A stretch of 64,000 nucleotides of DNA from a virus. The notes under the pieces are model-generated. The model made no database searches. It had not been told where the DNA came from and saw only the letters and a program-made list of their open reading frames with translations. The stretch is from IMG/VR virus record IMGVR_UViG_3300043803_002519. One strand, 5' to 3'. Shown here in pieces: positions 17,002-41,000 of the stretch (position 1 is the first letter of the stretch; each line of letters starts with the position of its first letter). Position numbers and translations under genes: made by a program.

Positions 17002-19077
17002 ATGCAGAGCAAGGCCCTCGTCATCCCCGGCATCAAGGGCATCGACCAGCGGTGGTCGGCGGGCGCGTCCAGCGCGACTCGCGCCCGAGACCTGCGCTGG
17101 GACGGCCGCGGCTTCTGGACCTCCTCCGGGGGCTACGGCCTCTACATGGAGAGCAACGAGAACGCGAACCCCTTCGCCGGCGTCGGGCGCATCAACTCGG
17201 CGCACTACTTCAGCCAGCACAACGGAGCGCGCAGCTGGCTCATCTACGAGGCGGCCAACGGCAACCTCTACACGTTCAACCCCTCCACTGCGGCGCGGAG
17301 CGGCTCCCCTGGCGACATCGCCGAGGACCGCGCGGCCCAGCAGCAGACCGACCGCGCGAGCCCCACGACCCCGTGGCAGCACAGCCAGTCGGCGACCTGG
17401 GGCGACAACTTCTACATCGTCAACGGCATCAACCGGCCCCTCGTGTTCGACGGGTACTGCTGGGACTACGCGGGGTTCAGTGGACCCGCCGGGTCGCCGT
17501 CGGCAGTGGTAATGGCCCGGCCGTTCGCGACCACAGGGAGCGGAATCAAGCTGACCTCCGTCGGCCTGGGTCCGACGAGCAGCGACGCCGATGTTGATTA
17601 CAAGGTGGCCTACCGCTGGCGTGTGGCGTTCCGGAATGTCCGAAAGCAGTTGTCGCCGCTGTCGTCGCCCTCGGAAATCGTGAGCTTCACCAACTCTGGA
17701 GGGTCTGAGGAGTCTGACGGGGGGCACCTGGCGGCCCTCAACCTGCCGATTGGCGGGCCGGAGGTGACTACCCGGGTGCTGTTCCGCACCCAGAACATAT
17801 ACGACTCCACAGGGAACCCCATCCAGGGGTACGCCGATCAGTTCTTCTTCCACTCGGAGATTCCGGACAACGTCACCGCAGTGGTTCTCGACGGGTTGCT
17901 CGACAGCAATCTCGGCACCCCGGTGGACGACCTGGACTACGGGCCGTGGCCGACGGGGGCGAAGTTCATCGCGCCGTTCAAGGGGTGCATGTTCGCCACG
18001 GGCAGCACCCAGACGGACGTGTTCTACTCGGCCCCCGGCTCCCCGGAGAACTTCCCCATCGACAACGTGTTGCCGGTGGGCGACGCCTACCTCGGGCCCA
18101 TCACGGGCCTGTACGGCACCCGAAACGCGCTGGTGGTGTTCAAGGAGCACGGCATCTACTTCATCAAGGGCGACCCGGTGAACGGCTTCACCGCCTCGCT
18201 CTTCACGAAGACCACGGGCTGTGTGGCGGGCAACACCGTGCGCGAGGTGCCCGGGCTCGGCCTGGTGTTCCTCGGCAGCAGCGGGGTGTTCCTGCTCCGC
18301 GGCACCCTTGAGAACGAGGGGGTGCAGACCGAGGTGGTGCCCCTGCACGTTCCCATCACGGAGTGGATGAAGAAGCTGAACCGCTCCGCGCTCATCGGGG
18401 CGGTGGCCGCGGTCTACCACCGGGACAAGGAGTATTGGCTGGCGGTGCCATCGGTCGGGTCGGCGGAGAACGACCTGGTCCTCGTCTTCCACTACGAGGT
18501 GGGGGAGTGGACGACCCGCGAGGACTTCCCCATCTCGTGCATGCTCGAGACCCCCGACCACCGGGGGCACCTCGTCTTCGGCAGCTGGGACCCCAACAGC
18601 GAGGGCATCCACCTGTACTCCCCCGCCTTCGCCGACAAGAACGGCACCGCCATCGCGCCGCTGTACCAGACCGGCTGGTTCAACGTGGGGGCCATCTGGC
18701 GCTCGATGCGGCCGAAGTACGTGCAGGTCCAGTGCGGCCTCCACGGCGACAACGGGCTCAACCTCGAGGTCACCACCAACCGAAAGCTCGCTGCCTGGCC
18801 CGCCCAGCCCGCCGAGCCACAGCAGTACCCAGGCGACGCCCAGCCCGTGTACGGCACGGCCACCTTCGACTCCGACATCAACTGGACCGCGTTCCGCCCG
18901 GGGACGCTCCGGTTCGACATCGTGGACGCCAAGCAGGCTATGGTTCACGAGATGAGCGTGGCCTTCACCCCGGACAGCGGCAAGCGGTGGATGTCGCTGG
19001 TCGTCATCGACCCCGAGATTTCCCCCGACGACCCCAACGAGGCGAAGCCCATCGGGCCCGGCCGAGGGGGGCGCTGA
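17002..19077 (+). CDS. Large virion structural protein, tail or nozzle candidate (691 aa)
   Basis: Clean ORF in the structural block. Function inferred from position only. Confidence 0.6.
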   Translation: MQSKALVIPGIKGIDQRWSAGASSATRARDLRWDGRGFWTSSGGYGLYMESNENANPFAGVGRINSAHYFSQHNGARSWLIYEAANGNLYTFNPSTAARSGSPGDIAEDRAAQQQTDRASPTTPWQHSQSATWGDNFYIVNGINRPLVFDGYCWDYAGFSGPAGSPSAVVMARPFATTGSGIKLTSVGLGPTSSDADVDYKVAYRWRVAFRNVRKQLSPLSSPSEIVSFTNSGGSEESDGGHLAALNLPIGGPEVTTRVLFRTQNIYDSTGNPIQGYADQFFFHSEIPDNVTAVVLDGLLDSNLGTPVDDLDYGPWPTGAKFIAPFKGCMFATGSTQTDVFYSAPGSPENFPIDNVLPVGDAYLGPITGLYGTRNALVVFKEHGIYFIKGDPVNGFTASLFTKTTGCVAGNTVREVPGLGLVFLGSSGVFLLRGTLENEGVQTEVVPLHVPITEWMKKLNRSALIGAVAAVYHRDKEYWLAVPSVGSAENDLVLVFHYEVGEWTTREDFPISCMLETPDHRGHLVFGSWDPNSEGIHLYSPAFADKNGTAIAPLYQTGWFNVGAIWRSMRPKYVQVQCGLHGDNGLNLEVTTNRKLAAWPAQPAEPQQYPGDAQPVYGTATFDSDINWTAFRPGTLRFDIVDAKQAMVHEMSVAFTPDSGKRWMSLVVIDPEISPDDPNEAKPIGPGRGGR

Positions 19078-26285: not shown

Positions 26286-29200
26286 ATGCCGAGCCCGCGA
26301 TCTCCCCAAGAAATCCTTGATGCGCTGGGGATGACCGAGGACGAGGTTCTCGGGCCCCTCCCGCCCAAGGACGCCGTCGAGCTCGCACCCGAGGACTACC
26401 GCGACCCGGAGGTCCTGCCCGTGGGCGAGGAGCCCCCGGAGGGTGGCGCGCGGACCCCGCGGGGTCGCATCGCCAAGGGCTACGCGAGTGCCGTCTACGA
26501 GGATGGGAACACTGCCCTCCGCTCGCTTCGCGGGGACGTGGCGGACCACCTCATCACCCAGGGGCTTGCCCCTGAAGACGCCAGGCTCACGGCCTACGAG
26601 GACACCCGGCACCTCGAGGCCACCGGCCACGTCGAGGACAGCGAGGACGCGGCCGACGCCATCCGCGCGCGTGAGGGGGAGCCGACCGTCGGCAAGGCCC
26701 TCACCATGGCGGTCAACCGCGTCACCCCCATCGGGCTGGACCAGGGCCCGGAGGAGTGGGGTCGCCGCGTCCGCGAGAACGAGAAGGCCACCTGGGGCGA
26801 GCGGTCCGACGCGCTCGGCAAGGCCTTGCAGGGCGAGGAGATCACCGAGGCGGACGCCAAGGCGGCGGGCATTGACCTCCCGCTCGTGCAAGAGCTCAAG
26901 AAGGCCTACGTCTCCCACTTCGGGGAGATGGTCTACACTGCCGGCTCGGCGGGCATCCTCCCGACCATCGGCTCCATCACGGGGCTGATTCCGGGCTGGA
27001 GCGACGTCGTCGAGCAGTCGGGCAAGAACCTCGAGGTGGCGAAGGAGGGGAAGAAGTATGTTACCTCCGAGGAGCTCGTCAAGATCGCCGCCTACGGCGG
27101 GGTCAACTCCCCCATCGGCGACGCCATCCCCTACATCGTGGATGCCGCGGTCGACTTCCATGACGTGGTCACCGGCGAGGACAAGCAGGGCAGGCTCCGC
27201 AGCGCGACCGGCGGGACCGTGGGGGACGTGTTCTGGGACTTCGTCTCCAAGGGCCGGCACAACGAGAAGTTCGACCCCGCGGCCAAGGCCCTGTACGAAG
27301 AGGGGGATGTCGCTGGCTTGGGGCAGCTGGGCATGGTCGACATCCCTGAGCACGTTCCGGCGGTCAAGGTTGACCTGCCGACGTTGAAGAGCGCCGTGGA
27401 GGCGGGGGGTCTGCTGGCCGAGGCGCCCGAAGCAGATCGGTTCCGGGTGGGGATGTCCAGTGGTCTGTCCGACGAGGTGCTCCAGACCCTCGCTGACGCC
27501 ATTCCTCTGGACGTGGTGCGCCGCGCGCAGCCGGACGCGGGCCCGACGTTGAAGTCCGTGCTCGCGGCCTACACGGCTCGCAAGAAGATTCAGGAGATCG
27601 TAGGCACCCCCGAGGCAGACGACGCCCTCAAGGTGGCCGCGGCCGCGCTCCACGACCGCGAGGTGCGGGAGGACGGCTCGGTGTACTTCGTGCCGTCCAC
27701 CACGCAGAAGGTCCTGACCGCAATCAATGCGGCCGTGCCTCTCGTCATCGAGGCAGATGTTCCCGTTCTCGGGCCCGTCGCCGGCGTCTACGGGGGCGTG
27801 CTCAAGGCCATGGGCTTCGAGAAACTCGGGGGCATGGCGGAGTCGGCGAGGTTCCCGACGGCAGCTGGCAACGAGTCCATGGTCGCTTCCGGCGACTTCG
27901 ATTGGGTCCTTGAGGGCATGGGCCTTCAGGGCAGCACCTCTTCCGAGCGTCGGCGCGACATCGGGGAGTCTCGGTACATCGACCGCGTGTTGGCCGACAT
28001 GCAACTGCCCCAGTACCAGAACTGGGGCCTGAAGGAGCTCGGCCGCGACCTTGGGGTGAAGCCGGGCTCCACGGCGGACGTGGCCCTCGGGACCGCGGAC
28101 CTTGGGGCGGACACCGTCGTGCCCTTCGAGGAGATGTTCCTCGGGCCCGCCGGCTCGGCGGTCACCATGGCCTCGCGCGCGGCGACGGCGGCGAAGCTCA
28201 GCAAGATGCTCGGGCGGAGCAACTCCCAGGCGGCACGCGTTGCGGTGCGAGCGGCGCTTCCCCAGTTCCTGGGCGGGTCGACGGATGCCGTCGCGGCCAT
28301 GGACGCGGCCCTGCGGACGGCCGTCGCCGACTCGGTGGCGGCGGGCGAGGTGCTCTTCACGGTTGGCCGCGGCGAGGACGCCGTGAAGGGGACGCTCTCC
28401 AAGGAGGTCCAGCGTGCCGTCGGCAACCTCCTCGAGGACGTGGGCATCCGCAAGGAGGACGTGTTTCGCACGGTCAACGACCTCTCCTTCGCGCAGAAGG
28501 CCAAGAACACCGTCATCGTGAAGGACTGGATGGCCCGGGGCACTCCCGAGCAGAAGGCCCTCCGCGAGACGGCGGAGTGGAAGGCGGTGCGACAGGGGCT
28601 GGAGGAGTCGGCCCCGCCAGAGGTCGTGGACGCTGGCATGGCGCTCAACGAGTGGATGGCGCACCAGGCAGTGGTGCTGGGCGAGTTCCGCTCCCCCAAG
28701 GACTGGTTCGCCGCGCAGCGCGTGGGCAAGGCCATCGACGGTGCCGCGCCTCCTCCGCCGCGCCCGACCACGGTCGCTGACGCCCTGCGCGCGGCCGCTA
28801 CGGATGCGGACGGCGAAGTGTCGGCAATGGCTGCGCGCCTCTTGGCGATGAACCATCCGGCGGTGACGTCCGCCGCGCTCGACGTGGGCGTGGACCTCGG
28901 GCCCGGCGTGCACGGCCGCTACGACATCGCGGACAACCACATCGTCCTGTCGCCGAGCGCGACCGCGAGCACCCTCGTCCACGAGGTGGCGCACGCGGTC
29001 ACGGCCCACGCCCTTCGCAACGTCGACACCCTGTCGCCCGCCGGTCGCAAGGCGGTGGCGGACCTGCAGGCCCTGTACGCCAAGGCCTCGGAGTCCCCCG
29101 ACCTGCAGGCCGTCGGCCTGGGTCTGGACAACCTCGACGAGTTCATCGCTGAGGCCTACTCCAACCCGGCCTTCCGCGCGGCCTTGCGGAAGGTGAAGGT

Positions 29201-32200
29201 CACCCCCACCAAGAGCGCCTGGCGGGTGTTCGTCGACACCGTGGGACAGCTCCTGGGTCTCAAGACCAAGCCTGAGCTCGACGCCCTCGACCGGACGCTG
29301 AGCAAGATCGAAGTCGTGGCCAAGGAGCGCGTGGTGCCGGGCCGCGGCGGAGGGTCTCTGGCTTCTCGGGCGGCGCTGGTCAAAGACCCGCCGGCCCCGG
29401 AGCCCCCCGACGTTCTTCCAGAGCGGCACCCCGCCGACACCTGGGCGGACGTCCGCGGTCCCATTGGGTGGTGGATGCCTCTCGACGAGGTCGAGTTCCG
29501 CATCGGTCAGATGGCGGAAGAGCACGCCATCTTCTTCGACCGCGAGGGGCGCCAGATTGCGCGCTTCGGGCCGGAGGACACTCGTCGGGACGCCCCGGGG
29601 TACGATCCTGCCACCGCGTGCATCATCTACCCCAAGGCGCTGGACGACCTCGCGGCCTCGGGTGGCGGGGTCTACACCCACAACCACCCCAGCGGCAGCG
29701 CCCCGTCCATCGACGACGTTCTCGTGGCACGTCGCGGGAACGTGGACGCACTGCGCGCTGTCGCACGGAACGACGGATTCACCTGGGTCGTTCGCCGGCC
29801 AGAGGCGGGCTGGCCAGAGACCGATGTGTTGCGAAGGGCGTGGAAGGACCTCGCGCACACCGTGTACCTGTCTGCCAAGAAGCGCATGGACGCCCGCATC
29901 AAGGCTGCGGGGGGGAACCTCTGGGAGGGCGACCGGGCGGCTGGCTTCTCTGAAACCGTATGGAAGGAGTACCTCACGAATGGCTACGACACCCACTGGG
30001 CCGAATACTTCGGGGACCTTGGCATCGTCCTCGAGCGGGAACGGCACCCCCATCTTGGTCAACTCGGACTGGACGCCCCGGTACGGGGAGCCGCTGGTGC
30101 TCCCGGAGCCGGACCCGCAGTTGCTGGAGCCACCGAAGCGGCCCGCTACCCCGCCGTCGGAGTAGGCGAGCAGGGCAGGCTGTTCTCCCGTGCTGCGCCG
30201 GAAGGCGGCACTGTTCGGAAGGGCCGGCTGGGTTCGGACCTCCCCCGACTGCTGGACCTGCTCGGAGCGAGCATGTACTCCAAGCCGCTCGCAGAGGTGG
30301 CTGTCAAGGAGTTGGTGCAGAACGCATTCGATGCAATCAAGGCCACTGCCCGCACGGATGGGCAGATTCACGTCACCCTGAACGCCCAGGAGCGCACCCT
30401 CTCGGTGGCGGACAACGGCAAGGGGATGACCCCGGAAGTCGTGCAGGACGCGCTGTTCACGGTCGGAGGAACCAACAAGGAGGGGCTCGCCGTGGGAGAC
30501 CGCTCGGGCGGGCTGGGGTTGGCCAAGATGGCCTTCCTGTTCGGGTCCGAGTGGGTCGATGTGGACACGGTGCATGGGGGGGTTCGCACCCGCGTTCACG
30601 CCACGTCGGCGCAGATCAAGGCCTCCGACTTTGACATCGTGACTGAGCCTGCCCCCGGCGCGCCCAACGGAACCAATGTCACTCTCAAGATTCCGGAGAC
30701 GTACCGAGACCCTGCCTCTGGAGCGGACCGCACCATCTACCTCTTCAAGGAGCAGATGACGAGCGAGCAGGGGTCGGGGGTGCTGGACAGGCCGCTTTTC
30801 GGGAACGTCGAGGTCCTGTTCACGGAGGTTCCGCGGTACGGAACGCCGTCAACCGCCACGCTGCCCGTTGGCAGGAACACTGACCCGCTCGCAACCCCCC
30901 TCCTGACCCGCGCAGCGTTCGACTGGGGCTCCGCGGACGTCTACATGGGGGACGCCCGGAAGAAGTACCCCCGGCACCGAGTACTGTCTGCGGGACTGCA
31001 TCAGTTTGATACTGCCATTCTCGCAGGTAACGAGCGCATCCCCTACGACATCGTAGTTGACATTCGCCCGGGAGTGGACCCGCTCCACCCACACTACCCG
31101 TTCAACAACCAGCGGGAGGGGTGGCGCGGTACGGTCGAGGCCGACGTCAAGGCCCTGAACGGCTACATCGCCAAGCACTCCAGCGGCCGCGCCGCCGCAG
31201 AGACGTCGGACGTGTTCAAGGGGGCCGTCACGATGCCCCGTGTGGCGCCCGACGACCTGGATGTCGGAGCGGCCGCTCCCGCGGCTGTGAAGGCGTTTGC
31301 GCCGAAGGCTCCCCCTTCTCCACCCCCCGAGGGCGCCGCGGCCCCGAGGGCGCCCGACGTAATCAAGATCAGCGCCGGCGCTGTGGCCCCTTCGGTATCG
31401 GAGCGGGCGGCCCCAGACAGCTTCCGTCCCGAGAGGGCGGCCCCCGACCTTCAGTCCTTCGTCGGGTCCGTGGCCGTGGACCCCCTGAAGCCGCTCTTCC
31501 ACAACAACACGGGAGTCGACTACATCGGCGCGGTGCGGGCGGCGCTGCCTGGCGCCGAGCCCGAGCGGTTCCTCGCGGAGATGGGGTCGCTGGTCCTCGA
31601 CTTCAAGGAGGCCGCGGCCAAGCAGGACAAGTACGGTCTGGCCGATCTGGTCTCGTTGGAGAACCCCTACGCTGCAGGCATCTCCATCGACAAGGACTAC
31701 CGAGGGGTTCACGTCAAGGTCCCGTACCGCGCGTTCTTCCTGAATCCCCTCGCGGCCACCAACGAGACCGCGTCGGGCCTTGCGGAGAGCATGCTCCACA
31801 CGCTGGTCCACGAAGTGGCGCACACGACCGTGATGGCGCACAACGAGAACTTCGCTCTCGCGCTGGCGGACGTTTACGACCGGCTCGGAGACTCCGGGGA
31901 CACAGACATCTTCCGGGCGCGGCTGCGGAAAATACTGACGCGGCACCAAGACACCTTCAACGAGATGAGGCGCATCTATGACAGCCCCCGCACAAGCAAT
32001 CTCCGAGGCGCTCTGGAAAACGGCGAGCAGCTTTCCACCCGAGGAGCGCCCGGCCCAGGTGAAGGCGGCCCTGGAGCAGCACCTGGAGATGCTGCAGCAG
32101 TCGGGGGGCTCGACGGAGATGCAGGCCCCGCTCGTCGAGGCGTTGGAGAGCCTTCTGCTCGAGAACTGATCGAGGCGGCTCTGCCGGGTCTCTCCGGGCA

Positions 32201-35200
32201 CGGGAACGCCGCGCGGCCGGGTCCGCTCTACTCCCGCGCGGCCCCGGCCCCCTCGGCAGTCCCGAAGCCGTCGCTTCCTGAACCCACCGACGAGGTGCGT
32301 CGAGCGCATCAAGCCCTCGTCGTCAAGCGACTGCTGTCGCCGAGCGCAGAGACGCGCGCGGCGCACCAGGCGTACCAGGCGGAGCACCCCGAGGTGCTTG
32401 CATGGGCGGAGTACCGGGCGGCTGTCGCCGACGCAGAGTTGGCTCAAGCGCGCGAAGCTGCCCGCGCGGAGTACGAGGCCGGAGCCCCCGCCCGTCAGGC
32501 TGCAGCGGACGCGAAGGCGGCACGGTATGCGGACGCGAAGGCGACCGGAAAGAAGCTGCCCCCGGAAGAGCGGGCGATGAATCGTCGCGAGTGGTTCGGG
32601 GACTCCGCGGTGACGACCACGGGCGAGGCCGGTGGGAAGCCGCTGGTCGTCACGCACGAGTCGCCGTCAAAGTTCTCGGAGTTCCGGGCAGGGGAGTTCG
32701 GCTTTCACTTCGGGGTCGGCATCCCCGACGGGATGTTCGGCAGCAACCGGGTGTCGGGGCTGCTCCGCATCAACAACCCGATGCGGATGGCTGACCTCGG
32801 GGTGTGGACGCCGGAGCGGGTCCTTGCGGAGGGCGGGTTCAGCACCGCGGAGCAACCGCGCCTGCTGGCGGAGGTTGAACGGATTCGGGCGGAGGCGGAC
32901 GCGCCGACGAAGGCCATGGTCGCGAAAGCACGGGCTTCTGGAGACGTGGCCACGGCCGAGAAGTGGCAGGCCCTCTTGGAAGATGGCAGCGATGCGGCGA
33001 CCTTCCGCGACCGCCGCGGGAACTACCTGGCGAGCCGGCCGGTGCATGACGCCCTCCGCGAGAAGGGCTACGACGGCATCGTGTACCGCAACGAGGCGGA
33101 GGGGGTCGACGACTCCTACATCGCCTTCGAGCCGCAGCAGTTCAAGTCGAACAAGAACGTCGGGACCTACGACGCCACCGACCCCCGCTTCCTGTACAGC
33201 CGCGCCGCGCCAGCCCGCGCCGCCGAGGAGGCGGCCGAGCCCCTGCCCGTGTTTCGATCTCCTGCCGCCACAGAGCAGCGCTGGCATCGGATTGGCGACG
33301 ACCATCAGTACACCGAGTTGACCATCTCCCCTGAGGGGGCGCTGGACCCGTCGTTGCCGAGCTACGCGAAGCGGGGAAGGATGTCCAGCGGTCGCGGGAC
33401 AGGGTTCGCCTCTGGCATGTACGCATTCGCTGACGCGCGCCAGGGGACGGTTCCCGTTCTCCCCGCCCGGAACCCCCTGACGCTTCGGTCGTGGGGGCTT
33501 GAGGTGCCCAACGCGGCGGCCGAGTTCCAGCGGGATGCGTCGTCTCTCCTGTTCCTCGCGGAGCGCCTTCGCGACCTGTCTCCGGCGAAGCGCGCAGAGG
33601 CCATCGATCTGTTGCGCGCGAGGGTGTCCTCCTCCTTCGAGGAAGTGTACGACGCCGAGAAGCGCCTTGCCTCCCCCGAGTTCGGCATTGGTCGGGGTGT
33701 GTTTGGCGGGGAGCCCAAGTTCCCGTCCGACCTCGCGACCGCCCTTGACCCCCTCCTCTCGCGCTGGCGGAGGGTGGGTGTGCCTGCGGGCCTCGACGGA
33801 GCCGGCACGGTGGACGCGCTGATCGATGCGGCGGCGACGTGGGGCAAGCACCAGCATGTCCACCCGGTGAACATCCTGCTGAGTCGAATGGGCCACGACG
33901 GCATCGAATGGGCGGGAGGGGCGCTCAAGGAAGGCAACACCGGCGCCCACGGCTTCGTCAAGTTCCCGCCCATCACCGCAGACGGCGCTCTCGTTGACGT
34001 CGTTCCAGACCCTCGTCATGGCTACGCGGTGACGCACGGTGGGCGCGACCCGCGGGTGCTGTACTCCCGCGCCGCGCCAGCCCGCGCCGCCGAGTACCGC
34101 GGTGTAGACGGCAAGCCCCGCACCGCCACCATGTTCAGCGGCGGTGGGCTGGTCGAGGCGGGTCTCCGCAAGTACATCGACCCGGTGTTCGCGGTCGAGG
34201 TGAGCCCTGAGATCGGAGCCGCGTACAAGGCGGCCCACGGCGACCACGTCCGCATCGACGACGTCCGCAACGTCGACCTCGGCGAGGCTGGCGACGTGGA
34301 CTACCTGCACGCCTCCCCGGTCTGCAAGAACTTCAGCGCCGCCAAAGCCGTCACGGAGTCCGGTGAGCAGCCCCTGGACCTTGAGACGGCTCGGGCCACC
34401 GCCGACGCCGTCCACCGCACCCAGCCCGCGGTCTTCACGCTGGAGAACGTGCGGGGCTACCAGGGCACCGAGGCCATGGGGCTGGTCGAAGCCGCGCTCC
34501 GCGAGGAGGGCTACACCTTCGACGCCAACGTCTACGACGCGGCCGACTACGGCGCGGCCACCCGACGCAAGCGTCTGCTGCTCCGGGCGGTGAAGGACGG
34601 GGACCTCCCCCCGGTCCCGGCGCCCACGCACGGGCCCGGCCGGGCGCAGCCCTACGCCGACTGGTACGCCGCCGTTGAGGACCTCGTAGATGACCTGCCC
34701 GACGACGTGGTCCCCCCGTGGATGCGACGGCGCCTCGAGGCGGCGGGGATCGATCCCGACGCGCCGGCGAAGCCCACCATCGTCATGGGCGGCAGCGCTG
34801 GGAAGAACGTGCCCTACGCGGAAGCGGGGGGGCCTGCCCCCACGTTCAAGGCCACGCCGGGCGAAGCGCACCGCATCATCTTCCCCGACGGGCGGGTCAA
34901 GCGGGTCACGCCCCGCGCAGCCGCTCGCATCACGGGCCTGCCTGACGACTACCCGCTGCCCACCAAGAACGCGACGGCGACGACGGTCATCGGCAACGGC
35001 GTGCCCCCGGCCCTGAGCGAGGCGGTGTTCGCGCCGCTCTTGGCGGGCGACCATGTGCCGGGGACGCTCTACTCCCGCGCGGCGCCTATTGAAGACGCCG
35101 CGCCCGGCATCGTGGCCCTCCGCAAATACATGCTGGATGCGGCCGGCGACGATACGGCGTTCGACGCCAAGGTCTACGCTGAGCGCAAGCAGGTCTGCGC

Positions 35201-38200
35201 GTTGACCGGGCACTGCAACGCGGCGGCGTACATCGTTCAGAAGCGCTACGGCGGCGAGCTTCTGAGTGCGAAAGTCGACGGCGAAACGCATGTATGGAAC
35301 CGGCTCGCCGACGGCACCGAGATCGACCTCACCGGTTCGCAGTACGGCGGGGACGGGTTTCACCCGGTAGCGAAGAATGGAAAGGTGGTGCCACTGCGAT
35401 CCACGGTGAACCCGCGGTTTGCAGCGTTTGAAGACCGCGTGGCCGCTGCGGAGCTGCGCGCTGCGCGCGACCCTCGGTTCCTCTACTCCCGCGCCCCCGG
35501 CAACCAGACCGACACGCCCGCCTTCCAGCGCTTCATCGAGGGCACCAAGGCCGTGGACGAGGACGGCGCGCCGAAGCGGCTGTACCACGGCACCACGCAC
35601 GACTTCGAGGCCTTCGACGCGCAGAGTGGGAACGTCGAGAACCACCACGGCCGTGGCATCTACCTGACCTCGTCGGAAGGCGACGTCGGGTCCAACTACG
35701 CCACCCGCGAGGGGCCCGACCTCAAGAGCCGCATCGAGTCCCAGATGGAGTCCCTCCTCGACGTCTGGGACGACCCCAGCGTGGCGCAGGACTTCGTCGA
35801 GCGGTGGCTGGAGGCGCACCCTGAGCGCGCCGCCGAGGGCGAGCGGCTGGTCCAGGTGCTGGACGACGGGGGGAACCCCGACGCGAATCTCTTGCAGGAG
35901 ATCACTCGGTGGGTAGCCGAGCAGGAGATTGCTGGCTCGCACGGGGGCGCAGTCCTGCCCGTCTACGCCGCCATCAAGAACCCCGTCGATTTGCGGCCCG
36001 GCAAGGTGACACGCTTCGACATCGAGACGAAGTGGTCCGAGGACGGTGAGGACTTCCTCGGCGAGACCGGGGCCGGCGTGGAGGCCATCGACGCCATCCG
36101 CCGCATGGCCAACTCCTCCGACACGGCGGACCTGATCATCGAGGCGCTCGGGGACATCTCCGAAGGGTTCGACGCCGCTGACCTCGAGCGCGCAGTGCGG
36201 GACAACTCCATCGAGTTCCTCGACGACGACTCTTCAGCGGGGCAGTTCCTTCAGGACGTCTACCGCGAGCTGGGCTTCGACGGCATCGTCATCGACGCCT
36301 ACAAGACCTTCGGCCCCCGGCGCGCAGGGTGGGGGGTAAACCTCCCCGGCATGGCGGGGCTGACCCCCGGCACGGAGCACTGGGTCGCCTTCGAGCCCAC
36401 CCAGGTCAAGTCCGCCACGGGCAACCGCGGCACGTTCGACCCGAAGGACAAGCGCCTCTTGTACAGCCGCGCGCCTGACGGCCCGACGTGGACCGCCGAG
36501 CCCCCGCCCCCGGGCGACAAGGTCCCCGGCATCGTCGACAACCCCGCCCACGCGGCTTGGTCCAAGACGAAGCGTGACCTTGCGAAGGATGTCGCGGACC
36601 TCGAGGACGCGGAGCTATCCGCGTGGTGGGAGCACTACGGGCCCTCTCCGGACGCGCCGACGGTCGCGCCCAGGCCGAAGAACTTCGCCGAGGCTCAGGC
36701 CTACTGGACCGAGCACGGCGACGACCCGGCGGAGTTCCCCGAGCCCTCCCCCGAGCTCTCTGCGAAGCTGCAGGCCCTCGACGATGCCAACGCCGCGCCC
36801 GAGCCCTCGCGCACCACCGCAGGCTTGGTGAACGACCCGGCCCGCGTCATCGTCCGCTACTTCAAGACCGCCAACATGCAGGCCCTGCTCGAGCAGAACG
36901 CTCAGGTCATCCGCATGCTGCTCGGGGAGAAGTGGGCGGGCGACCTCATGCGCTTCTTCGACCACGAGGTCGACACAGCCTCCGGCCAGGTGCGCCTCAC
37001 GAAGAAGGGCGAGGAGCAGTTCAACGTGGCCCTCGCCCGCGTCCTGCGCGGCGACCTCGCGCCCCGCGGCCGGGTGCGGGCGTACTTCGAAGAGCTCCGC
37101 GATGCGCTGAGCGACATCTGGCTGAACCTCCGCGGCAAGCCCATGTCGCTGCCCCCCGGCTTCCGCCAGTGGTGGGACGCCACCCTCGACCCGGCCAAGC
37201 ACCTCCGCGCCCGGGTGAAGGTCTCCGACGAACGCTTCGGGCGCCAGCCGCTCGAGGTCAACGTCACCGTGAAGGCGAACGACCCCGACGCTCCCCCGCC
37301 GCCGGACCCCACGCGCCTCGGGCGGGAGCTCGCCGACGTCACGGACGTCATCTACCGAGAGGACTTCAAGCGCGCCAACGCTCTGCACGAGTACTGGAAC
37401 CTGCCCCTGACGCCCGGGCAGAAGCGCCACGCCCTCGGCATCCTGGGCAGCGACACCGACGTGGATGCTGTCGAGGCCGTGGCCAAGGCCATCGCGCTCC
37501 TCGGCACGACGCAGGCCCGCCGCCGCTGGGGCTTCTCCGGCAAGGTGGTGCGGGTGGGTCGGCGCAGCCAGGTCTCCGAAGACCGCAAGGAGAGCGTGCT
37601 GAAGCGCGCCCGCGAGGCCTTGCACGGGGCCATCGGCGGCGACGTGGTGGCCGCTCCCGACGGCGGGGTGACCCTCACCCCCGAGCAGGCCAAGGGCCTC
37701 GCCGCACACCTCGACCACCTCGTGGACGCCGGGTGGGGCGAGCAGCTGCCGGACGAGTTGATCAGTCCGCAGAAGGACCTCACCAAGCTGACCGAGCAGG
37801 AGTGGTCGGACATCGCCAACACCACGGTCGACGACGTGGCGGGCCCTGGCAGCTACCGCGACCGCCAGGCCGACCGGGTCGTGGGCAACGCCGCGGAGAG
37901 CCTCCTCGGCCGCGCGGTCGACGCACTGTCCACCGTGCCCATCTTCAACGGCGTGCGCCGGAAGCTGACCGAGGCCTTCGACACGACCTTCGCCGGCAGC
38001 AAGAACATCAACCCCGCCGTGGCCGAGGTGGTGGACGGGTGGCGTCGCGAGTTCAGCGACGTGGCATCCCAGATTGCCCGCCTTCGTGAGCATGTTCGCG
38101 CGGGCACTGCAGACGAGACGGCCGAAGTCCTGATTCGGAAGATTGCCAAGGAACTGCCCGCCGTGGGCCCCGACCCCAAGGTGGTCGACGACCTGGTGGT

Positions 38201-41000
38201 GCTGAACCGCGCCCTCAACCCTGAGGGGGACGTCACGCCGACCGTGCAGACCTTCCTCGACAACAAGGCCGCACTACGCGCGCTGTTCGACGCGACGCCG
38301 GCCCACGGTCCCGCGGGCATCGTCGAGGCCGACGCGCTCCCCCGCCTCCTCCGCCTCGACGCGACGTCGGACATCAAGGACCCGGTCATCGCCGCGGCGA
38401 TTGAGGTGATCCAGACCGGCATCCGCCGACGCTACGAGGCGGTGCGTGACACCGGCCTCCGCATCGAGCAGCGTATGTCCGGCCGCGCCGACCTCGGCGT
38501 GGCGACGGGCGACCCCAACCTCCCCATCAACGCCTACAAGCTGTGGTACGCGGGCAAGTACCAGGAGCTCGCCGCTCAAGCCCAGCGCCGCGGCCAAACC
38601 ACCGACCCAGGCAAGTCCGGCGCGTCGGGGAGCTCGAGCGACGCGGCGGGCCTCGTGTTCGACCCAGTGTCCGGCGCCCTCGCGGTGGTGACGGGTCTCC
38701 TCGCCGACGGCGTGCTGGCCTCGGCGGCGGCCGATATGATGCGCCTCGGCCTGCCGGTGCACACCGACAGCGTCAACTTCGGCGGGCGCAACTTCGACCA
38801 GTGGGTGCCGCTCGGCAGCACCTCGATGTCCCGGGCGAAGTACCGGGCGCTGGTGCAGGAGTACATGAACGCCATCCTCAGCTTCCAGGGTTCGCAGTCC
38901 AAGCAGTTCAACGAGGCGCGGGAGTTCGTGGGGACCGAGATGCTCCCGGTCCAGGTGTCGGGGCTGAACGATGGAAAGTTCGACCCGTCCGCCTGGGCAG
39001 ACGCGCACCGCATCCTCGACTCTTGGGGCATCAAGAGCAACACCTCCGGGATGGAGACGATGGTCCTCCCGACGGGCGAAGAAGTGTTCATGCCCAAGAT
39101 CATCAAGGACGAGCTCACCGGACTCTTCGACCGCACGGCGAAGGCTGGGCTCCCCTGGACGAAGTCGGCGGAGGGCGAGCCCGACAAGATTCTCGGCCGG
39201 TTCGGCGAGTTCGTGGACGGGAGGCTCTACCCCAACAACAACCTCCAGTACAAGGGCAAGGGGAGCCTCGCCGACAACGTCAACATCGCCGTCCGGACGA
39301 TGGTCAACATCCCCGGCCGCACTCTCGCCATGGCGCGGGTCGGCGTCACCACGGGCGTCGGCATCCCCAACCCCGCCTTCTACATCGGCAACGTCTTCGG
39401 CGGCCTCCTGCAAGCCGTCCAGAGCAAGGGCGCTGTGGGCACGGCGCGAATGCTGGGCCGCTACCTGCCCGGCGTCGGCGGAGATGCCGGCAAGGTCCTC
39501 CGCAGCGTGTTCTGTCGGGTGTGGGGCGACTCTCAGGGCTACTTCAAGCCTGCTTCGGGGTCGTTCATCGCCGACAACGGCGCGGTCATCAGCGACGACT
39601 TCATCACCAAGACCGTGGTCAAGTACGGTCTGCACACGTCGCAGCCGCGGGCCGAGTCGGCCATCCGCATCATCGACGACCTTCGCAACCATGAAGGCAC
39701 GTTCTGGACGCGGGTGAAGCGCGACCGCATCTTCGACGTGCCGCTCCTCGGCACTGCGGAGAGCGCGGTCCGGACGGGCGTGTCTACGACCTTCCGCTAC
39801 TGGCAGGGCATCCTCGGAGACGCAGCCACCGCAGTGGACGACCTCTTCCGCGTGGCGACCTACGTCGACGAGCTCGCCGGCGGGGTCGCCCCGGCCGAGG
39901 CCGCCGCCGTCGCCCGCCGCACTTCCTTCGACTACGCTGACCTCACGGACTTCGAGAAGGAGCACCTGCGTCGGTTCATCATGTTCTACACCTTCCAGCG
40001 TCGCAACGCCGACCTGTTCTGGTGGACGATGCTGAACCACCCTTCCCGCATCATGGGCCAGGTGCGTGCGGTGCGGGACGCGCAGGAGCACTTCCTCGGA
40101 GAGGACGACTCCGAGAGCATCCTCCCCGAGCACCTCGACGGGCGCCTCATCATCGGGATGCGGAAGACTCTCGGCGACGAAGCGGCCCTGCGGGGCTCCC
40201 TCGGCACGATGACCGTCGCACCTCCGCTCCCGGCGATGGACCACCTCGGGCTGTGGGTCTCCATCTTCCGGTCCTTGAACAGCGACGAGCCGCGGGGCGG
40301 GCGCGAGATCATCTCCCGCCTGGCCCCCGAGTACCAGGCGCCGTTCGTCCTCGGCCTGGAGGTCGACATCTTCTCCGGCCGCGACCTCGCCGCCTTCAAC
40401 ACTGTCCCCTCGTGGATGGTGGAGATGGACCGCCAGATTTCCGGCGGGGCCATGGTCGACGACCTGTTCAAGGTCCGCAAGACGGAGAACAGCGACCCCT
40501 CCCGTGACGAGGCCCCCGGCGTAGATCGCTGGGAGCCCACGGGAGAGGGCGCGAAGTGGTGGTGGGTCTTCCGCAACCTCGTGCAGGTCCCGCCGTTCGG
40601 CCGGGGCACCGATACCATCACCCAGATGGCTCGGGCGGACTGGATTGTCGGGGACGTCGTGAACGGTGCCCGGTGGTATCGAGCCACTCAGGGCCCCGTG
40701 GGGGCCATCCGCGACAACCTCACCGACCCCTTCTTCCGCAGCGTGGTCCGCCCGATGATGGACGCCCTCCCTCACGTCGACCCTTCGGCGGTGCAGGTCT
40801 ACGAGCCCCCGGCCATCGTGGAGGACCTCAACATTGAGCGCGCCGGCTACACGCCGGGCCTTGAGGCCGCGCAGCTGTTCGGCGTCAAGAGCGTCATCGT
40901 ACCGACGGCCGCCATCGCGGCGGACGAGGACGAGGTAGGTCGCCGTCGCCGCATCAGCACCGCGGCCTCCGAGGAGCGGAAGCGCGACCCCTACCGGTAG
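26286..41000 (+). CDS. Giant multi-domain polyvalent virion protein (4904 aa)
   Basis: A single uninterrupted ORF of 14.7 kb with coding-like composition throughout. It carries the enzymatic motifs listed as sub-features below and sits inside the structural module. Confidence 0.9.
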   Translation: MPSPRSPQEILDALGMTEDEVLGPLPPKDAVELAPEDYRDPEVLPVGEEPPEGGARTPRGRIAKGYASAVYEDGNTALRSLRGDVADHLITQGLAPEDARLTAYEDTRHLEATGHVEDSEDAADAIRAREGEPTVGKALTMAVNRVTPIGLDQGPEEWGRRVRENEKATWGERSDALGKALQGEEITEADAKAAGIDLPLVQELKKAYVSHFGEMVYTAGSAGILPTIGSITGLIPGWSDVVEQSGKNLEVAKEGKKYVTSEELVKIAAYGGVNSPIGDAIPYIVDAAVDFHDVVTGEDKQGRLRSATGGTVGDVFWDFVSKGRHNEKFDPAAKALYEEGDVAGLGQLGMVDIPEHVPAVKVDLPTLKSAVEAGGLLAEAPEADRFRVGMSSGLSDEVLQTLADAIPLDVVRRAQPDAGPTLKSVLAAYTARKKIQEIVGTPEADDALKVAAAALHDREVREDGSVYFVPSTTQKVLTAINAAVPLVIEADVPVLGPVAGVYGGVLKAMGFEKLGGMAESARFPTAAGNESMVASGDFDWVLEGMGLQGSTSSERRRDIGESRYIDRVLADMQLPQYQNWGLKELGRDLGVKPGSTADVALGTADLGADTVVPFEEMFLGPAGSAVTMASRAATAAKLSKMLGRSNSQAARVAVRAALPQFLGGSTDAVAAMDAALRTAVADSVAAGEVLFTVGRGEDAVKGTLSKEVQRAVGNLLEDVGIRKEDVFRTVNDLSFAQKAKNTVIVKDWMARGTPEQKALRETAEWKAVRQGLEESAPPEVVDAGMALNEWMAHQAVVLGEFRSPKDWFAAQRVGKAIDGAAPPPPRPTTVADALRAAATDADGEVSAMAARLLAMNHPAVTSAALDVGVDLGPGVHGRYDIADNHIVLSPSATASTLVHEVAHAVTAHALRNVDTLSPAGRKAVADLQALYAKASESPDLQAVGLGLDNLDEFIAEAYSNPAFRAALRKVKVTPTKSAWRVFVDTVGQLLGLKTKPELDALDRTLSKIEVVAKERVVPGRGGGSLASRAALVKDPPAPEPPDVLPERHPADTWADVRGPIGWWMPLDEVEFRIGQMAEEHAIFFDREGRQIARFGPEDTRRDAPGYDPATACIIYPKALDDLAASGGGVYTHNHPSGSAPSIDDVLVARRGNVDALRAVARNDGFTWVVRRPEAGWPETDVLRRAWKDLAHTVYLSAKKRMDARIKAAGGNLWEGDRAAGFSETVWKEYLTNGYDTHWAEYFGDLGIVLERERHPHLGQLGLDAPVRGAAGAPGAGPAVAGATEAARYPAVGVGEQGRLFSRAAPEGGTVRKGRLGSDLPRLLDLLGASMYSKPLAEVAVKELVQNAFDAIKATARTDGQIHVTLNAQERTLSVADNGKGMTPEVVQDALFTVGGTNKEGLAVGDRSGGLGLAKMAFLFGSEWVDVDTVHGGVRTRVHATSAQIKASDFDIVTEPAPGAPNGTNVTLKIPETYRDPASGADRTIYLFKEQMTSEQGSGVLDRPLFGNVEVLFTEVPRYGTPSTATLPVGRNTDPLATPLLTRAAFDWGSADVYMGDARKKYPRHRVLSAGLHQFDTAILAGNERIPYDIVVDIRPGVDPLHPHYPFNNQREGWRGTVEADVKALNGYIAKHSSGRAAAETSDVFKGAVTMPRVAPDDLDVGAAAPAAVKAFAPKAPPSPPPEGAAAPRAPDVIKISAGAVAPSVSERAAPDSFRPERAAPDLQSFVGSVAVDPLKPLFHNNTGVDYIGAVRAALPGAEPERFLAEMGSLVLDFKEAAAKQDKYGLADLVSLENPYAAGISIDKDYRGVHVKVPYRAFFLNPLAATNETASGLAESMLHTLVHEVAHTTVMAHNENFALALADVYDRLGDSGDTDIFRARLRKILTRHQDTFNEMRRIYDSPRTSNLRGALENGEQLSTRGAPGPGEGGPGAAPGDAAAVGGLDGDAGPARRGVGEPSARELIEAALPGLSGHGNAARPGPLYSRAAPAPSAVPKPSLPEPTDEVRRAHQALVVKRLLSPSAETRAAHQAYQAEHPEVLAWAEYRAAVADAELAQAREAARAEYEAGAPARQAAADAKAARYADAKATGKKLPPEERAMNRREWFGDSAVTTTGEAGGKPLVVTHESPSKFSEFRAGEFGFHFGVGIPDGMFGSNRVSGLLRINNPMRMADLGVWTPERVLAEGGFSTAEQPRLLAEVERIRAEADAPTKAMVAKARASGDVATAEKWQALLEDGSDAATFRDRRGNYLASRPVHDALREKGYDGIVYRNEAEGVDDSYIAFEPQQFKSNKNVGTYDATDPRFLYSRAAPARAAEEAAEPLPVFRSPAATEQRWHRIGDDHQYTELTISPEGALDPSLPSYAKRGRMSSGRGTGFASGMYAFADARQGTVPVLPARNPLTLRSWGLEVPNAAAEFQRDASSLLFLAERLRDLSPAKRAEAIDLLRARVSSSFEEVYDAEKRLASPEFGIGRGVFGGEPKFPSDLATALDPLLSRWRRVGVPAGLDGAGTVDALIDAAATWGKHQHVHPVNILLSRMGHDGIEWAGGALKEGNTGAHGFVKFPPITADGALVDVVPDPRHGYAVTHGGRDPRVLYSRAAPARAAEYRGVDGKPRTATMFSGGGLVEAGLRKYIDPVFAVEVSPEIGAAYKAAHGDHVRIDDVRNVDLGEAGDVDYLHASPVCKNFSAAKAVTESGEQPLDLETARATADAVHRTQPAVFTLENVRGYQGTEAMGLVEAALREEGYTFDANVYDAADYGAATRRKRLLLRAVKDGDLPPVPAPTHGPGRAQPYADWYAAVEDLVDDLPDDVVPPWMRRRLEAAGIDPDAPAKPTIVMGGSAGKNVPYAEAGGPAPTFKATPGEAHRIIFPDGRVKRVTPRAAARITGLPDDYPLPTKNATATTVIGNGVPPALSEAVFAPLLAGDHVPGTLYSRAAPIEDAAPGIVALRKYMLDAAGDDTAFDAKVYAERKQVCALTGHCNAAAYIVQKRYGGELLSAKVDGETHVWNRLADGTEIDLTGSQYGGDGFHPVAKNGKVVPLRSTVNPRFAAFEDRVAAAELRAARDPRFLYSRAPGNQTDTPAFQRFIEGTKAVDEDGAPKRLYHGTTHDFEAFDAQSGNVENHHGRGIYLTSSEGDVGSNYATREGPDLKSRIESQMESLLDVWDDPSVAQDFVERWLEAHPERAAEGERLVQVLDDGGNPDANLLQEITRWVAEQEIAGSHGGAVLPVYAAIKNPVDLRPGKVTRFDIETKWSEDGEDFLGETGAGVEAIDAIRRMANSSDTADLIIEALGDISEGFDAADLERAVRDNSIEFLDDDSSAGQFLQDVYRELGFDGIVIDAYKTFGPRRAGWGVNLPGMAGLTPGTEHWVAFEPTQVKSATGNRGTFDPKDKRLLYSRAPDGPTWTAEPPPPGDKVPGIVDNPAHAAWSKTKRDLAKDVADLEDAELSAWWEHYGPSPDAPTVAPRPKNFAEAQAYWTEHGDDPAEFPEPSPELSAKLQALDDANAAPEPSRTTAGLVNDPARVIVRYFKTANMQALLEQNAQVIRMLLGEKWAGDLMRFFDHEVDTASGQVRLTKKGEEQFNVALARVLRGDLAPRGRVRAYFEELRDALSDIWLNLRGKPMSLPPGFRQWWDATLDPAKHLRARVKVSDERFGRQPLEVNVTVKANDPDAPPPPDPTRLGRELADVTDVIYREDFKRANALHEYWNLPLTPGQKRHALGILGSDTDVDAVEAVAKAIALLGTTQARRRWGFSGKVVRVGRRSQVSEDRKESVLKRAREALHGAIGGDVVAAPDGGVTLTPEQAKGLAAHLDHLVDAGWGEQLPDELISPQKDLTKLTEQEWSDIANTTVDDVAGPGSYRDRQADRVVGNAAESLLGRAVDALSTVPIFNGVRRKLTEAFDTTFAGSKNINPAVAEVVDGWRREFSDVASQIARLREHVRAGTADETAEVLIRKIAKELPAVGPDPKVVDDLVVLNRALNPEGDVTPTVQTFLDNKAALRALFDATPAHGPAGIVEADALPRLLRLDATSDIKDPVIAAAIEVIQTGIRRRYEAVRDTGLRIEQRMSGRADLGVATGDPNLPINAYKLWYAGKYQELAAQAQRRGQTTDPGKSGASGSSSDAAGLVFDPVSGALAVVTGLLADGVLASAAADMMRLGLPVHTDSVNFGGRNFDQWVPLGSTSMSRAKYRALVQEYMNAILSFQGSQSKQFNEAREFVGTEMLPVQVSGLNDGKFDPSAWADAHRILDSWGIKSNTSGMETMVLPTGEEVFMPKIIKDELTGLFDRTAKAGLPWTKSAEGEPDKILGRFGEFVDGRLYPNNNLQYKGKGSLADNVNIAVRTMVNIPGRTLAMARVGVTTGVGIPNPAFYIGNVFGGLLQAVQSKGAVGTARMLGRYLPGVGGDAGKVLRSVFCRVWGDSQGYFKPASGSFIADNGAVISDDFITKTVVKYGLHTSQPRAESAIRIIDDLRNHEGTFWTRVKRDRIFDVPLLGTAESAVRTGVSTTFRYWQGILGDAATAVDDLFRVATYVDELAGGVAPAEAAAVARRTSFDYADLTDFEKEHLRRFIMFYTFQRRNADLFWWTMLNHPSRIMGQVRAVRDAQEHFLGEDDSESILPEHLDGRLIIGMRKTLGDEAALRGSLGTMTVAPPLPAMDHLGLWVSIFRSLNSDEPRGGREIISRLAPEYQAPFVLGLEVDIFSGRDLAAFNTVPSWMVEMDRQISGGAMVDDLFKVRKTENSDPSRDEAPGVDRWEPTGEGAKWWWVFRNLVQVPPFGRGTDTITQMARADWIVGDVVNGARWYRATQGPVGAIRDNLTDPFFRSVVRPMMDALPHVDPSAVQVYEPPAIVEDLNIERAGYTPGLEAAQLFGVKSVIVPTAAIAADEDEVGRRRRISTAASEERKRDPYR
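28860..29180 (+). other. Domain of the giant ORF: zincin-like metallopeptidase 1
   Basis: LVHEVAHAV (H899-E900-xx-H903), followed by NLDEFIAEAY. Confidence 0.6.
29470..29810 (+). other. Domain of the giant ORF: RadC/JAB (MPN)-like
   Basis: AEEH...GGVYTHNHPSGSAPSIDD matches the JAB signature E...HxHPSG..PSxxD (H1132-N-H-P-S-G). Confidence 0.65.
30240..30700 (+). other. Domain of the giant ORF: GHKL (HATPase_c-type) ATPase
   Basis: N box KELVQNAFDA, G1 box VADNGKGMT, G2 box GGLGLAKMAF. Confidence 0.65.
31650..31980 (+). other. Domain of the giant ORF: zincin-like metallopeptidase 2
   Basis: HTLVHEVAHTTVMAH gives HExxH plus a third His at metzincin-like spacing (H1842, H1846, H1852). Confidence 0.5.
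32244..33185 (+). other. Domain of the giant ORF: ART-like / polyvalent-associated module ending in GYDGIVY...FEPQQFKS
   Basis: VVTHESPSKFSEF...FGFHFG near the start and GYDGIVYRNE...IAFEPQQFKSNKNVGTYD at the end. The resemblance to ART-type modules of polyvalent proteins is from memory only. Confidence 0.35.
34110..35060 (+). other. Domain of the giant ORF: DNA cytosine-5 methyltransferase
   Basis: Motif I MFSGGGL, motif IV ASPVCKNFS, motif VI LENVRG, motif VIII TRRKRLLL, motif X GNGVPP, in canonical order. Confidence 0.85.
35085..35471 (+). other. Domain of the giant ORF: small Cys/His module
   Basis: CALTGHCNAAAYIVQKRYGG...THVWNRLADGTEIDLTGSQY. It vaguely recalls YunG-type small proteins; this is unverified. 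Confidence 0.25.
35496..36455 (+). other. Domain of the giant ORF: ART-like module 2
   Basis: LYHGTTHDFEAFD...GIYLTSSEGDVGSNYA at the start and GFDGIVIDAY...VAFEPTQVKSATGNRGTFD at the end. Confidence 0.4.

Follow-up and report, generated by a model that had tools for sequence, protein, structure and literature searches.

The IMG/VR virus record IMGVR_UViG_3300043803_002519 was analysed as a stretch of 64,000 nucleotides (nt), here called the 64-kb window, with a G+C content of ~69%. A single open reading frame (ORF) on its + strand (26286..41000, taken from the ORF list and its translation) encodes a giant protein of 4,904 amino acids (aa), whose Pfam domains place it among the polyvalent proteins defined by Iyer et al. 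2017 (PMC5512222). The central part of this protein is an array of modules that are joined to each other by a short peptide, LYSRA(A)P. We consider it probable that this peptide is a cassette-junction motif which also has a role at the level of the protein.

Modules and junctions of the giant protein

A total of seven copies of [LF][YF]SRA were found in the 4,904-residue protein, with the leucine at residues 1299, 1981, 2303, 2592, 2928, 3066 and 3392 (nt 30180-36476). In 20,000 shuffles of the protein the pattern was observed 0.016 times on average and never more than twice. An unbiased count of 5-mers in a reduced alphabet gave 'lfska', which corresponds to LYSRA, as the top word containing an aromatic residue, with seven copies against a null maximum of four. 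Outside the seven sites, no [LIVMF][YF]SR[AR] was found in the six frames of the window. All seven instances reported by the sequence-only reading are present at the residues it listed, apart from a trivial offset in instances 1, 2 and 5, whose ranges start at the leucine and whose quoted strings start one residue earlier. It had also placed every instance at a module boundary, and each copy was indeed found between modules defined by Pfam (HATPase_c, two ART-PolyVal, C5 DNA_methylase and YunG). The motif is followed each time by an Ala/Pro-rich, low-complexity linker of 10-30 residues.

An eighth, degenerate copy, SLASRAAL (LASRA at aa 1025-1029, nt 29358-29372), was recognised behind the first zincin by alignment with related proteins. 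It aligns with LYSRA in P0018, LASRT in P0070 and LFSRK in P0028, and VLRSA is found there in P0032; five diverged relatives have kept the joint after zincin 1 in the form L[AYF]SR or LRSA. All eight copies are located in the central array (aa 1025-3397, 2,373 residues) and none was found in the 1,507-residue C-terminal backbone. A relaxed match in the N-terminal backbone, TMASRAAT (MASRA at aa 628-632, nt 28167-28181), does not fall at a recognisable module boundary and is probably due to chance.

The array is flanked by two conserved backbones, all of these features being on the + strand. The N-terminal backbone (aa 1-1024, 26286..29357) ends in zincin 1, where HEVAH (nt 28980-28994, aa 899) is followed by DEFIAEAYSN, and the pattern HExxH...DEFxAEA[YF]SN was observed to be conserved in 6 relatives. 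This backbone is 51% identical in amino acids over its whole length to the P0018 protein of locus L003, and its DNA is 90-94% identical to that of locus L018. Its zincin region matches a stretch of phrog_2206 'virion RNA polymerase' (N4-type) with an E-value of 1e-12, and a word-index search with zincin 1 found nothing. In the AlphaFold2 (AF2) model of zincin 1 the mean predicted local distance difference test score (pLDDT) is 75, with 80-95 in the core; a fold search with this model gave no match at E<=0.001, the weak matches to zincins (anthrax lethal factor, IrrE/PprI and jannalysin) all having E>0.1. At the other end, the C-terminal backbone (aa 3398-4904, 36477..40997) is recognised by its family of relatives, and the ~1,200 residues that define this family have no Pfam or PHROG match.

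Behind the degenerate junction (29358..29372) lies cassette 1 (aa 1030-1298, 29373..30179), which was characterised by inspection of its sequence. The string HNHPSGSAPSIDD at nt 29679-29717 resembles the JAMM/RadC metal-binding signature. The JAB module proposed by the sequence-only reading comes down to this string, and Pfam gave no match in the cassette even at E<=5. Cassette 1 is absent from L003, where the N-terminal backbone runs straight into the HATPase module. Junction copy 1, found as LFSRAAP by the motif scan (30180..30200), precedes cassette 2 (30201..32225), which contains HATPase_c_3 (E 1e-9, aa ~1337-1470) and a second zincin with HEVAH at nt 31809-31823 (aa 1842), for which the matches to Zincin_1, YgjP and WLM are all sub-threshold. 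Similarity to L003 (96%) and L018 (98.7%) begins exactly at copy 2, LYSRAAP (32226..32246), and continues into cassette 3, the ART-PolyVal-like module ART1 (32247..33191; E 6e-6, below the gathering score, aa ~2160-2290), which is 53-56% identical to P0002-P0004.

Copies 3 (33192..33212) and 4 (34059..34079), both LYSRAAP, flank cassette 4, a 282-residue module that we call modX (aa 2310-2591, 33213..34058). It is delimited by its junctions and has no match in Pfam or PHROGs. Cassette 5 (34080..35066) is a C5 cytosine DNA methyltransferase (DNA_methylase E 4e-30, aa ~2614-2925) and ends in copy 5, LYSRAAP (35067..35087, motif scan); the methylase tail VFAPLL..PLYSR was also found in the distant relative P0023. 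Cassette 6 (35088..35480) belongs to the YunG family (E 2e-14, aa ~2968-3022) and is followed by copy 6, LYSRAP (35481..35498, motif scan). Cassette 7, ART2 (35499..36458), is the clearest ART-PolyVal module (E 5.8e-21, 76 bits against a cut-off of 31.2, aa ~3091-3390), and a PDB sequence search with it gave no match. It ends in copy 7, LYSRAP (36459..36476), where the similarity to L003 and L001 ends as well. A homologue of the YunG module was observed as a small stand-alone ORF at 5986-6417 of L019 (LR756511.1, a 595-kb uncultured phage). In frame and just upstream of its first Met the sequence reads ..RLFLYSRVGLGM.., which may be a junction-motif relic of a former cassette or may be due to chance.

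Module arrays of relatives and the position of breakpoints

A protein search with aa 1988-3415 found 16 proteins, and a full HMMER search with the C-terminal part returned 1,636 relatives at E<=1e-3, of which 89 also pass E<=1e-30. Many of them are giants of up to 7,833 aa, and proteins of 5,000-7,833 aa are included. A scan of metagenomes gave nine loci. No close relative was found among GenBank phages or in IMG/VR; the latter was searched with the C-terminal alignment and with a junction DNA pattern, and the pattern gave four chance matches. Four members of the window's own clade were then compared module by module. The window array reads N, JAB-like, HATPase-zincin2, ART1, modX, MTase (the methylase), YunG, ART2 and C, where N and C denote the backbones. 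In the nearest relative (P0017/L018) the order is N, unknown+ART4, zincinX, ART3', ART1, MTase, ART2 and C; in a TARA scaffold (P0018/L003) it is N, HATPase-zincin2', ART3, ART1, ART2, Z and C; and P0001/L001 has ..zincinX, MTase, modX, ART2, GNAT, Z and then C. Every joint in all four arrays reads L[YF]SR. In L001 the polyvalent ORF stops and the C-terminal backbone restarts as a separate ORF 70 nt later (~6182-6252), a part that is continuous in L003. This split may be real or an assembly error; the scaffold also has a gap of N inside the methylase.

The blastn segments shared between the window and L003, L001 and L018 were observed to start and end at the motif, where neighbouring segments overlap by ~27-33 nt. 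The resolved breakpoints are located within or at the edge of the 12-27 nt that code for the motif. As an example, the joint between ART1 and ART2 in L003 is a chimera, in which the match to window copy 3 runs up to CTGTACAGCCGC and gives way to a match to window copy 6 that begins at GACCCTCGG. The crossover therefore lies inside GACCCTCGGTTCCTGTACAGCCGC, in the 24 nt coding for DPRFLYSR. In L018 the methylase is joined directly to ART2; relative to L018 the window has YunG inserted between copies 5 and 6, and the 97.8% similarity to L018 resumes exactly at nt 35481, after YunG. We noticed that the linker behind the motif moves with the downstream module (APAPSAVPKPSLPEP with ART1), and a cassette therefore consists of linker, domain and tail.

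The clearest case involves modX. L018 has one joint between ART1 and the methylase with no modX in between, whereas the window has two copies of the motif flanking this module. These two copies lie in the arms of a 49-nt direct repeat of 88% identity, copy 3 in the left arm (33179-33227) and copy 4 in the right arm (34046-34094), and they share an identical run of 27 nt. The sequence-only reading had pointed out that instances 3 and 4 continue identically (LYSRAAPARAAE), and this run accounts for it. It follows from these comparisons that modX was inserted at the junction (or lost from it), with a duplication of ...LYSRAAPARAAE, and the identical continuation of copies 3 and 4 is fully explained by this event. 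In L001 modX is 92.7% identical in nucleotides to that of the window, but it is placed after the methylase. Recent tandem duplication of a single linker was rejected as the origin of the copies, because extended DNA identity is limited to copies 3 and 4 and is explained by the insertion of modX.

Between the window and L003 the cassettes are far more similar than the backbones that carry them. Window and L018 share 94-99% nucleotide identity in most of their common parts and 87% in the methylase. Between the window and L003, ART1 and ART2 show 96% and 92% nucleotide identity and the N- and C-terminal backbones just 65-72%; over both comparisons (L003 9647-11614 and L018 6277-14107) the two modules are 92-99% identical. 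The high identity of cassettes between window and L003, set against that of their backbones, argues for recent horizontal exchange of cassettes between diverged phages. The horizontal movement of cassettes outpaces the divergence of the gene carrying them.

A scar of modular recombination was among the explanations offered by the sequence-only reading, and it is directly supported by the four different arrays and by the breakpoints in motif-coding DNA. A protease cleavage site in a polyprotein and a recognition or packaging tag, both taken up below, were its other two proposals. It had also named absence of the motif from equivalent boundaries of homologues as evidence against its view, and homologues were found to carry the motif there. 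On the evidence of these alignments, the motif is a cassette junction, and the recombination that reshuffles the array crosses over in the sequence coding for it. The protein is conserved at both ends, the N-terminal part closing with a zincin, and carries an array of independent effector modules in between, each ending in the motif and followed by a flexible Ala/Pro-rich linker. Related phages have gained, lost and reordered modules by recombination with crossovers in the 12-27 nt coding for the motif, and each exchange therefore remains in frame. The junction is duplicated by an insertion, which leaves one copy more than there are cassettes. A simple model of the copy number would start from an ancestral protein with a single junction behind zincin 1, an arrangement that is still found in P0032 (N backbone, VLRSA, C backbone), and would have every insertion duplicate this junction.

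Breakpoints at the motif might also be expected if it were purely a protease recognition site and the ORF a polyprotein. Selection would then remove recombinants that had lost a site, and the motif DNA would take no part in recombination. This agrees with a peptide that is conserved despite synonymous changes, with the predicted disorder around it, with the presence of two HExxH zincins in cis and with the proposal by Iyer et al. 2017 that zincins process polyvalent proteins. Crossovers in the 10-30-residue linkers behind the motif should be equally harmless under such selection, yet the breakpoints sit within or at the edge of the motif DNA. The duplication at modX is a direct repeat, as predicted by homology-guided insertion, and the excess DNA identity and the two DNA haplotypes described below indicate exchange at the level of DNA. 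A purely protease-driven origin of the pattern is therefore rather unlikely in our view.

Conservation of the junction as DNA and as peptide

The codons of the seven copies were observed to vary, with Leu encoded by CTG, CTC or TTG, Ser by TCC or AGC, Arg by CGC or CGT and Ala by GCC, GCG or GCT. A signal at the nucleotide level, such as an internal start or a frameshift site, was rejected because of this synonymous variation. Within the window the pairwise nucleotide identity over the four core codons is 0.80 as compared to 0.74 expected from the codon usage of the ORF (p = 0.09). Only copies 3 and 4 share a longer identical run, and the uniformity is therefore found mainly at the amino-acid level. 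When the copies of the window and of two relatives were pooled (19 copies), two DNA haplotypes became apparent, CTG TAC AGC CGC and CTC TAC TCC CGC (CTGTACAGCCGC and CTCTACTCCCGC), which are also denoted CTGTACAGC vs CTCTACTCC. They differ at 3 of 12 nt, including the two-step serine switch between TCC and AGC, and encode the same peptide. Two haplotypes that spell one peptide suggest selection on the peptide, and their occurrence at several junctions suggests that DNA has been exchanged between junctions.

The motif class was also found in proteins of very different sequence. P0066 (5,508 aa) and P0079 (4,482 aa), whose C-terminal part is 27-33% identical to that of the window protein, contain ~8 copies each of [FY]SRR(A). 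The order of modules also differs between these two proteins, and the BLAST segments end near the motif. In both proteins two motifs are located only ~18-24 residues apart (P0066 aa 2751-2775 and P0079 aa 1943-1972), with the conserved mini-spacer ..AI[EQ]VEEVE[TP][KR]FSRR. These pairs look like an empty cassette slot or like what is left after a deletion from one junction to the next. EGxPL[FY][SQ][RK] was observed as the tail of the Z module in P0001, P0002, P0008, P0054, P0057, P0066 and P0070. Furthermore, in unrelated polyvalent proteins the tail of the ART-PolyVal units was found to be ...G-x-F-D-x(4-6)-I-R-[FY]-S, I-x-R-S or I-L-x-Q. The GTFD....(I/L)(R)(F/Y)S tail of other polyvalent proteins, to which the sequence-only reading had referred, corresponds to these unit ends. 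Variants ending in Q (PLFQR, ILYQ, ILNQ and LLFQA) as well as PLFSR and DIR[FY]S occur in related proteins.

A loose form of the pattern was observed 153 times in the 81 family proteins of at least 1,500 aa as compared to 75.5 expected, an excess due to few proteins. The motif is absent from the ART2 homologues of the cultured phages Tunturi_5 (gp321) and Mx1. Multi-fold reuse of the motif is thus a property of some lineages, neither unique to the window protein nor universal in its relatives. The sequence-only reading had suggested that a seven-fold reuse is exceptional; this does not hold, as P0017, P0018, P0066 and P0079 carry 5-8 copies. The motif is conserved as a peptide and not merely as DNA, because synonymous codons differ and because it recurs in relatives of such different sequence.

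These data bear on a further explanation, in which the motif is a neutral scar or micro-homology site that serves as a DNA handle for cassette exchange and encodes a peptide without function. The position of breakpoints at the motif, the duplication of the junction with each insertion, and the two haplotypes together with an identity above the codon-usage expectation would all follow from it. However, haplotypes that differ at 3 of 12 nt, with the serine codon switched, still encode the same peptide, and the peptide class recurs in dissimilar sequences as [FY]SRR(A), PLFSR and DIR[FY]S, and as L[AYF]SR after zincin 1 in relatives of 25-33% identity. Within the window alone, moreover, the DNA identity is not significantly above that expected. 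We regard a peptide without any function as unlikely.

AF2 was also used to model ART2 together with both of its flanking junctions from an alignment of 16 rows. The model is weak overall (mean pLDDT 57). The segments adjoining the junctions are better predicted, with values of 72-92 behind copy 6 and of 84/78 ahead of copy 7, and copies 6 and 7 themselves fall in segments of coil with pLDDT <50 and no regular structure. In the zincin 1 model the core ends ~15 residues before the degenerate copy, where the pLDDT is ~30-34. In addition, P0079 matches the Pfam model of ART-PolyVal over its full length, and ~8 residues separate the end of this model from the motif. The models and the domain boundary indicate that the motif acts as a short linear motif from which a flexible linker starts and is not part of a fold.

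A structural cap at the C-terminus of each module's fold could be expected from the ends of many ART-PolyVal units (G-x-F-D-x(4-6)-[IL]-x-[FY]-S) and from the constant tail of the Z module across distant relatives. It is nevertheless very improbable. In the window protein the motif comes after modules whose folds have nothing in common (zincin, HATPase-zincin, methylase, YunG, modX and ART); it has low pLDDT and no regular structure beside core segments that are better predicted; the Tunturi_5 and Mx1 homologues of ART2 do without it; and the curated Pfam model ends before it. An integral part in the ART fold itself was rejected on the last three of these grounds.

Possible delivery and release of modules, and known systems

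The giant ORF is located in the late/structural gene block of the phage. Upstream and on the same strand are the large terminase TerL (5415-7598, +; phrog_38, E 6e-67) and a match to a virion-protein PHROG (17002-19077, +). Genes for replication are located downstream on the - strand and encode a family A DNA polymerase (PolA), a PD-(D/E)XK nuclease and a D5-like primase-helicase (51805-53700, 58598-60757 and 61066-63861). The terminase and the mostly unrecognisable structural genes thus form a block on the + strand, with the replication genes on the - strand, and nearly all remaining large ORFs of the window have no Pfam or PHROG match. Besides the methylase cassette, a second C5 cytosine DNA methyltransferase is encoded by a stand-alone gene (49423-50655, +; Pfam E 5e-48).

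With respect to the class, polyvalent proteins contain two to fifteen unrelated domains, and here HATPase_c, C5 DNA_methylase, YunG and ART-PolyVal pass the Pfam cut-offs, to which the ART-PolyVal-like and the two HExxH modules are added. ART-PolyVal is the class-specific domain that was found, and no LPD or MPTase-PolyVal model of Pfam matched. The protein is encoded by a phage, as shown by TerL, the virion-protein PHROG, PolA, the PD-(D/E)XK nuclease and the D5-like primase-helicase. The polyvalent protein gp47 of phage phi24B has been found packaged in virions by proteomics (bioRxiv 10.64898/2026.04.10.717836). The position of the gene and the analogy with gp47 suggest that the giant protein is packaged in the virion and injected.

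Under the cassette-junction reading, the peptide would have a function of its own. Most plausibly, modules would be separated (or recognised) there once the protein has been delivered with the phage DNA. Separation might be carried out by an embedded zincin or by another protease, in line with the processing by zincins that Iyer et al. 2017 proposed for these proteins. Cleavage is favoured by the conservation of the peptide despite synonymous codon changes, by the predicted disorder of the linker and by the two HExxH zincins of the protein. We propose a role as module release site tentatively, as one possibility that is itself less than probable; the alternatives of a tag for recognition or translocation, of a neutral scar and of a fold element are given lower probability. 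A stronger form of the proposal would make the ORF a true phage polyprotein. An embedded zincin, most likely zincin 1, would cut at or next to the bond between S and R of L-Y-S-R-A at all eight junctions after delivery and would free at least seven anti-defence enzymes, the DNA of the site having been co-opted as an in-frame handle for recombination. This stronger form is possible but doubtful.

Several observations weigh against the reading as a junction with a protein-level role. In the pooled set of 19 copies the nucleotide identity is 0.828 as compared to 0.743 expected (p ~6e-4, a significance that is overstated as the copies are partly orthologous), and part of the uniformity of the motif is therefore concerted evolution by recombination and not independent selection on each copy. 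In most other giants of the C-terminal family (P0083, P0074, P0071 and others) no word recurs more often than in the null, so that proteins of this family can have many modules and do without the motif. Five [FY]S/RS tails and no HExxH were found in P0008 and P0009; a zincin in cis is thus not generally required, and this weakens the role as a release site. In addition, a function in the virion or in delivery is derived for the giant protein solely from gene position and analogy. Because of P0008 and P0009, the idea that the motif always goes together with a zincin of its own protein was rejected.

Alternatively, the motif could be a tag that is recognised during packaging, unfolding or translocation; a chaperone, the portal or the ejection machinery would then bind it without cleavage. 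The motif does have the traits of a linear motif, being short, disordered, conserved as a peptide and present once per module; its gene lies within the structural block; and large polyvalent proteins such as gp47 of phi24B are packaged in virions. No candidate binding partner was identified, however, and no observation supports the tag specifically. The motif is also absent from all other ORFs of the window and from most giants with the same backbone, which presumably share the packaging route. We consider such a tag quite unlikely. The absence of the motif from all other ORFs of the window, those of the structural block included, was also the ground on which a general prohead-protease site common to capsid proteins was rejected.

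The protein class, the shuffling of domains within it and the idea of processing by zincins are already known. In Iyer, Burroughs, Anand, de Souza and Aravind 2017 (PMC5512222) processing by zincins is proposed for polyvalent proteins and extensive domain shuffling is noted. The window protein resembles the proteins described there in carrying many unrelated effector domains in one giant phage polypeptide, among them the class-specific ART-PolyVal, a DNA methylase and zincin-type HExxH modules. Unlike them as described there, it has an explicit junction, present in 8 copies and mapped as the crossover point. Neither that paper nor further open-access literature was found to describe a peptide that is conserved at the junctions of polyvalent proteins, or breakpoints that map to such a peptide, which is not proof that no description exists.

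A comparable short peptide is the VENN motif of CdiA, which demarcates a variable module, homology beginning at one motif-coding sequence and ending at the next, with modules exchanged at these points (Poole et al. 2011, PMC3150448). In the window protein a short conserved peptide likewise marks modules, and identity between relatives starts and stops at the motif DNA. In CdiA only one junction exists; it precedes the one toxin at the C-terminus, and orphan toxin/immunity cassettes follow downstream. The window protein has 8 junctions in series in one ORF. The modules of the former are secreted bacterial toxins and those of the latter are phage enzymes. A scan of all six frames of the 64-kb window found no orphan cassettes with the motif, and immunity genes are lacking as well. 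The window protein works like VENN at the junction but it is not a member of the CdiA type, because orphan motif cassettes are lacking in the window.

In MARTX toxins, a cysteine protease domain (CPD) that is activated by inositol hexakisphosphate (InsP6) cuts after Leu in the linkers. No Pfam family of a CPD or of RTX-type repeats was found in the giant protein, which was scanned in ten pieces. MARTX toxins are described as having conserved N- and C-terminal delivery parts that flank a variable array of effectors (PMC4453568, PMC5218395), and recombination between strains is described as altering the composition of the array (Kwak et al. 2011, cited in PMC6315884). The window protein is similar in having conserved ends around a recombining centre of effectors and in the proposed release of effectors by an embedded protease. 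The target of MARTX is a eukaryotic cell, unlike that of the window phage protein. The window protein is thus an analogue of MARTX and not a member. In viral polyproteins, 3C or NIa proteases cut after L-x-x-Q at the boundaries. The near-identical short motif at every module boundary of the window protein recalls these sites, as do the variants ending in Q of related proteins, a resemblance of pattern alone, and no chymotrypsin-like protease was detected in the giant protein.

Polyvalent proteins are thought to be a payload that is injected by phages and plasmids and disarms the defences of the host. Since their definition in 2017 it has been an open question if they work uncut, as a single giant molecule, or in pieces, and where they would be cut, and the locus described here offers a concrete candidate site that is repeated eight times. 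It also shows at base-pair resolution how an effector repertoire gets rebuilt, with cassettes of 92-99% identity moved between backbones of 65-72% identity at the same 12-27 nt. The logic is the same as in the CdiA/Rhs and MARTX toxins and is found here in a phage protein. The junction further provides a rule for delimiting effector modules such as modX in metagenomic giants, which is to cut at [LF][YF]SR. If the polyprotein reading is true, phages could trade effectors that are ready to release.

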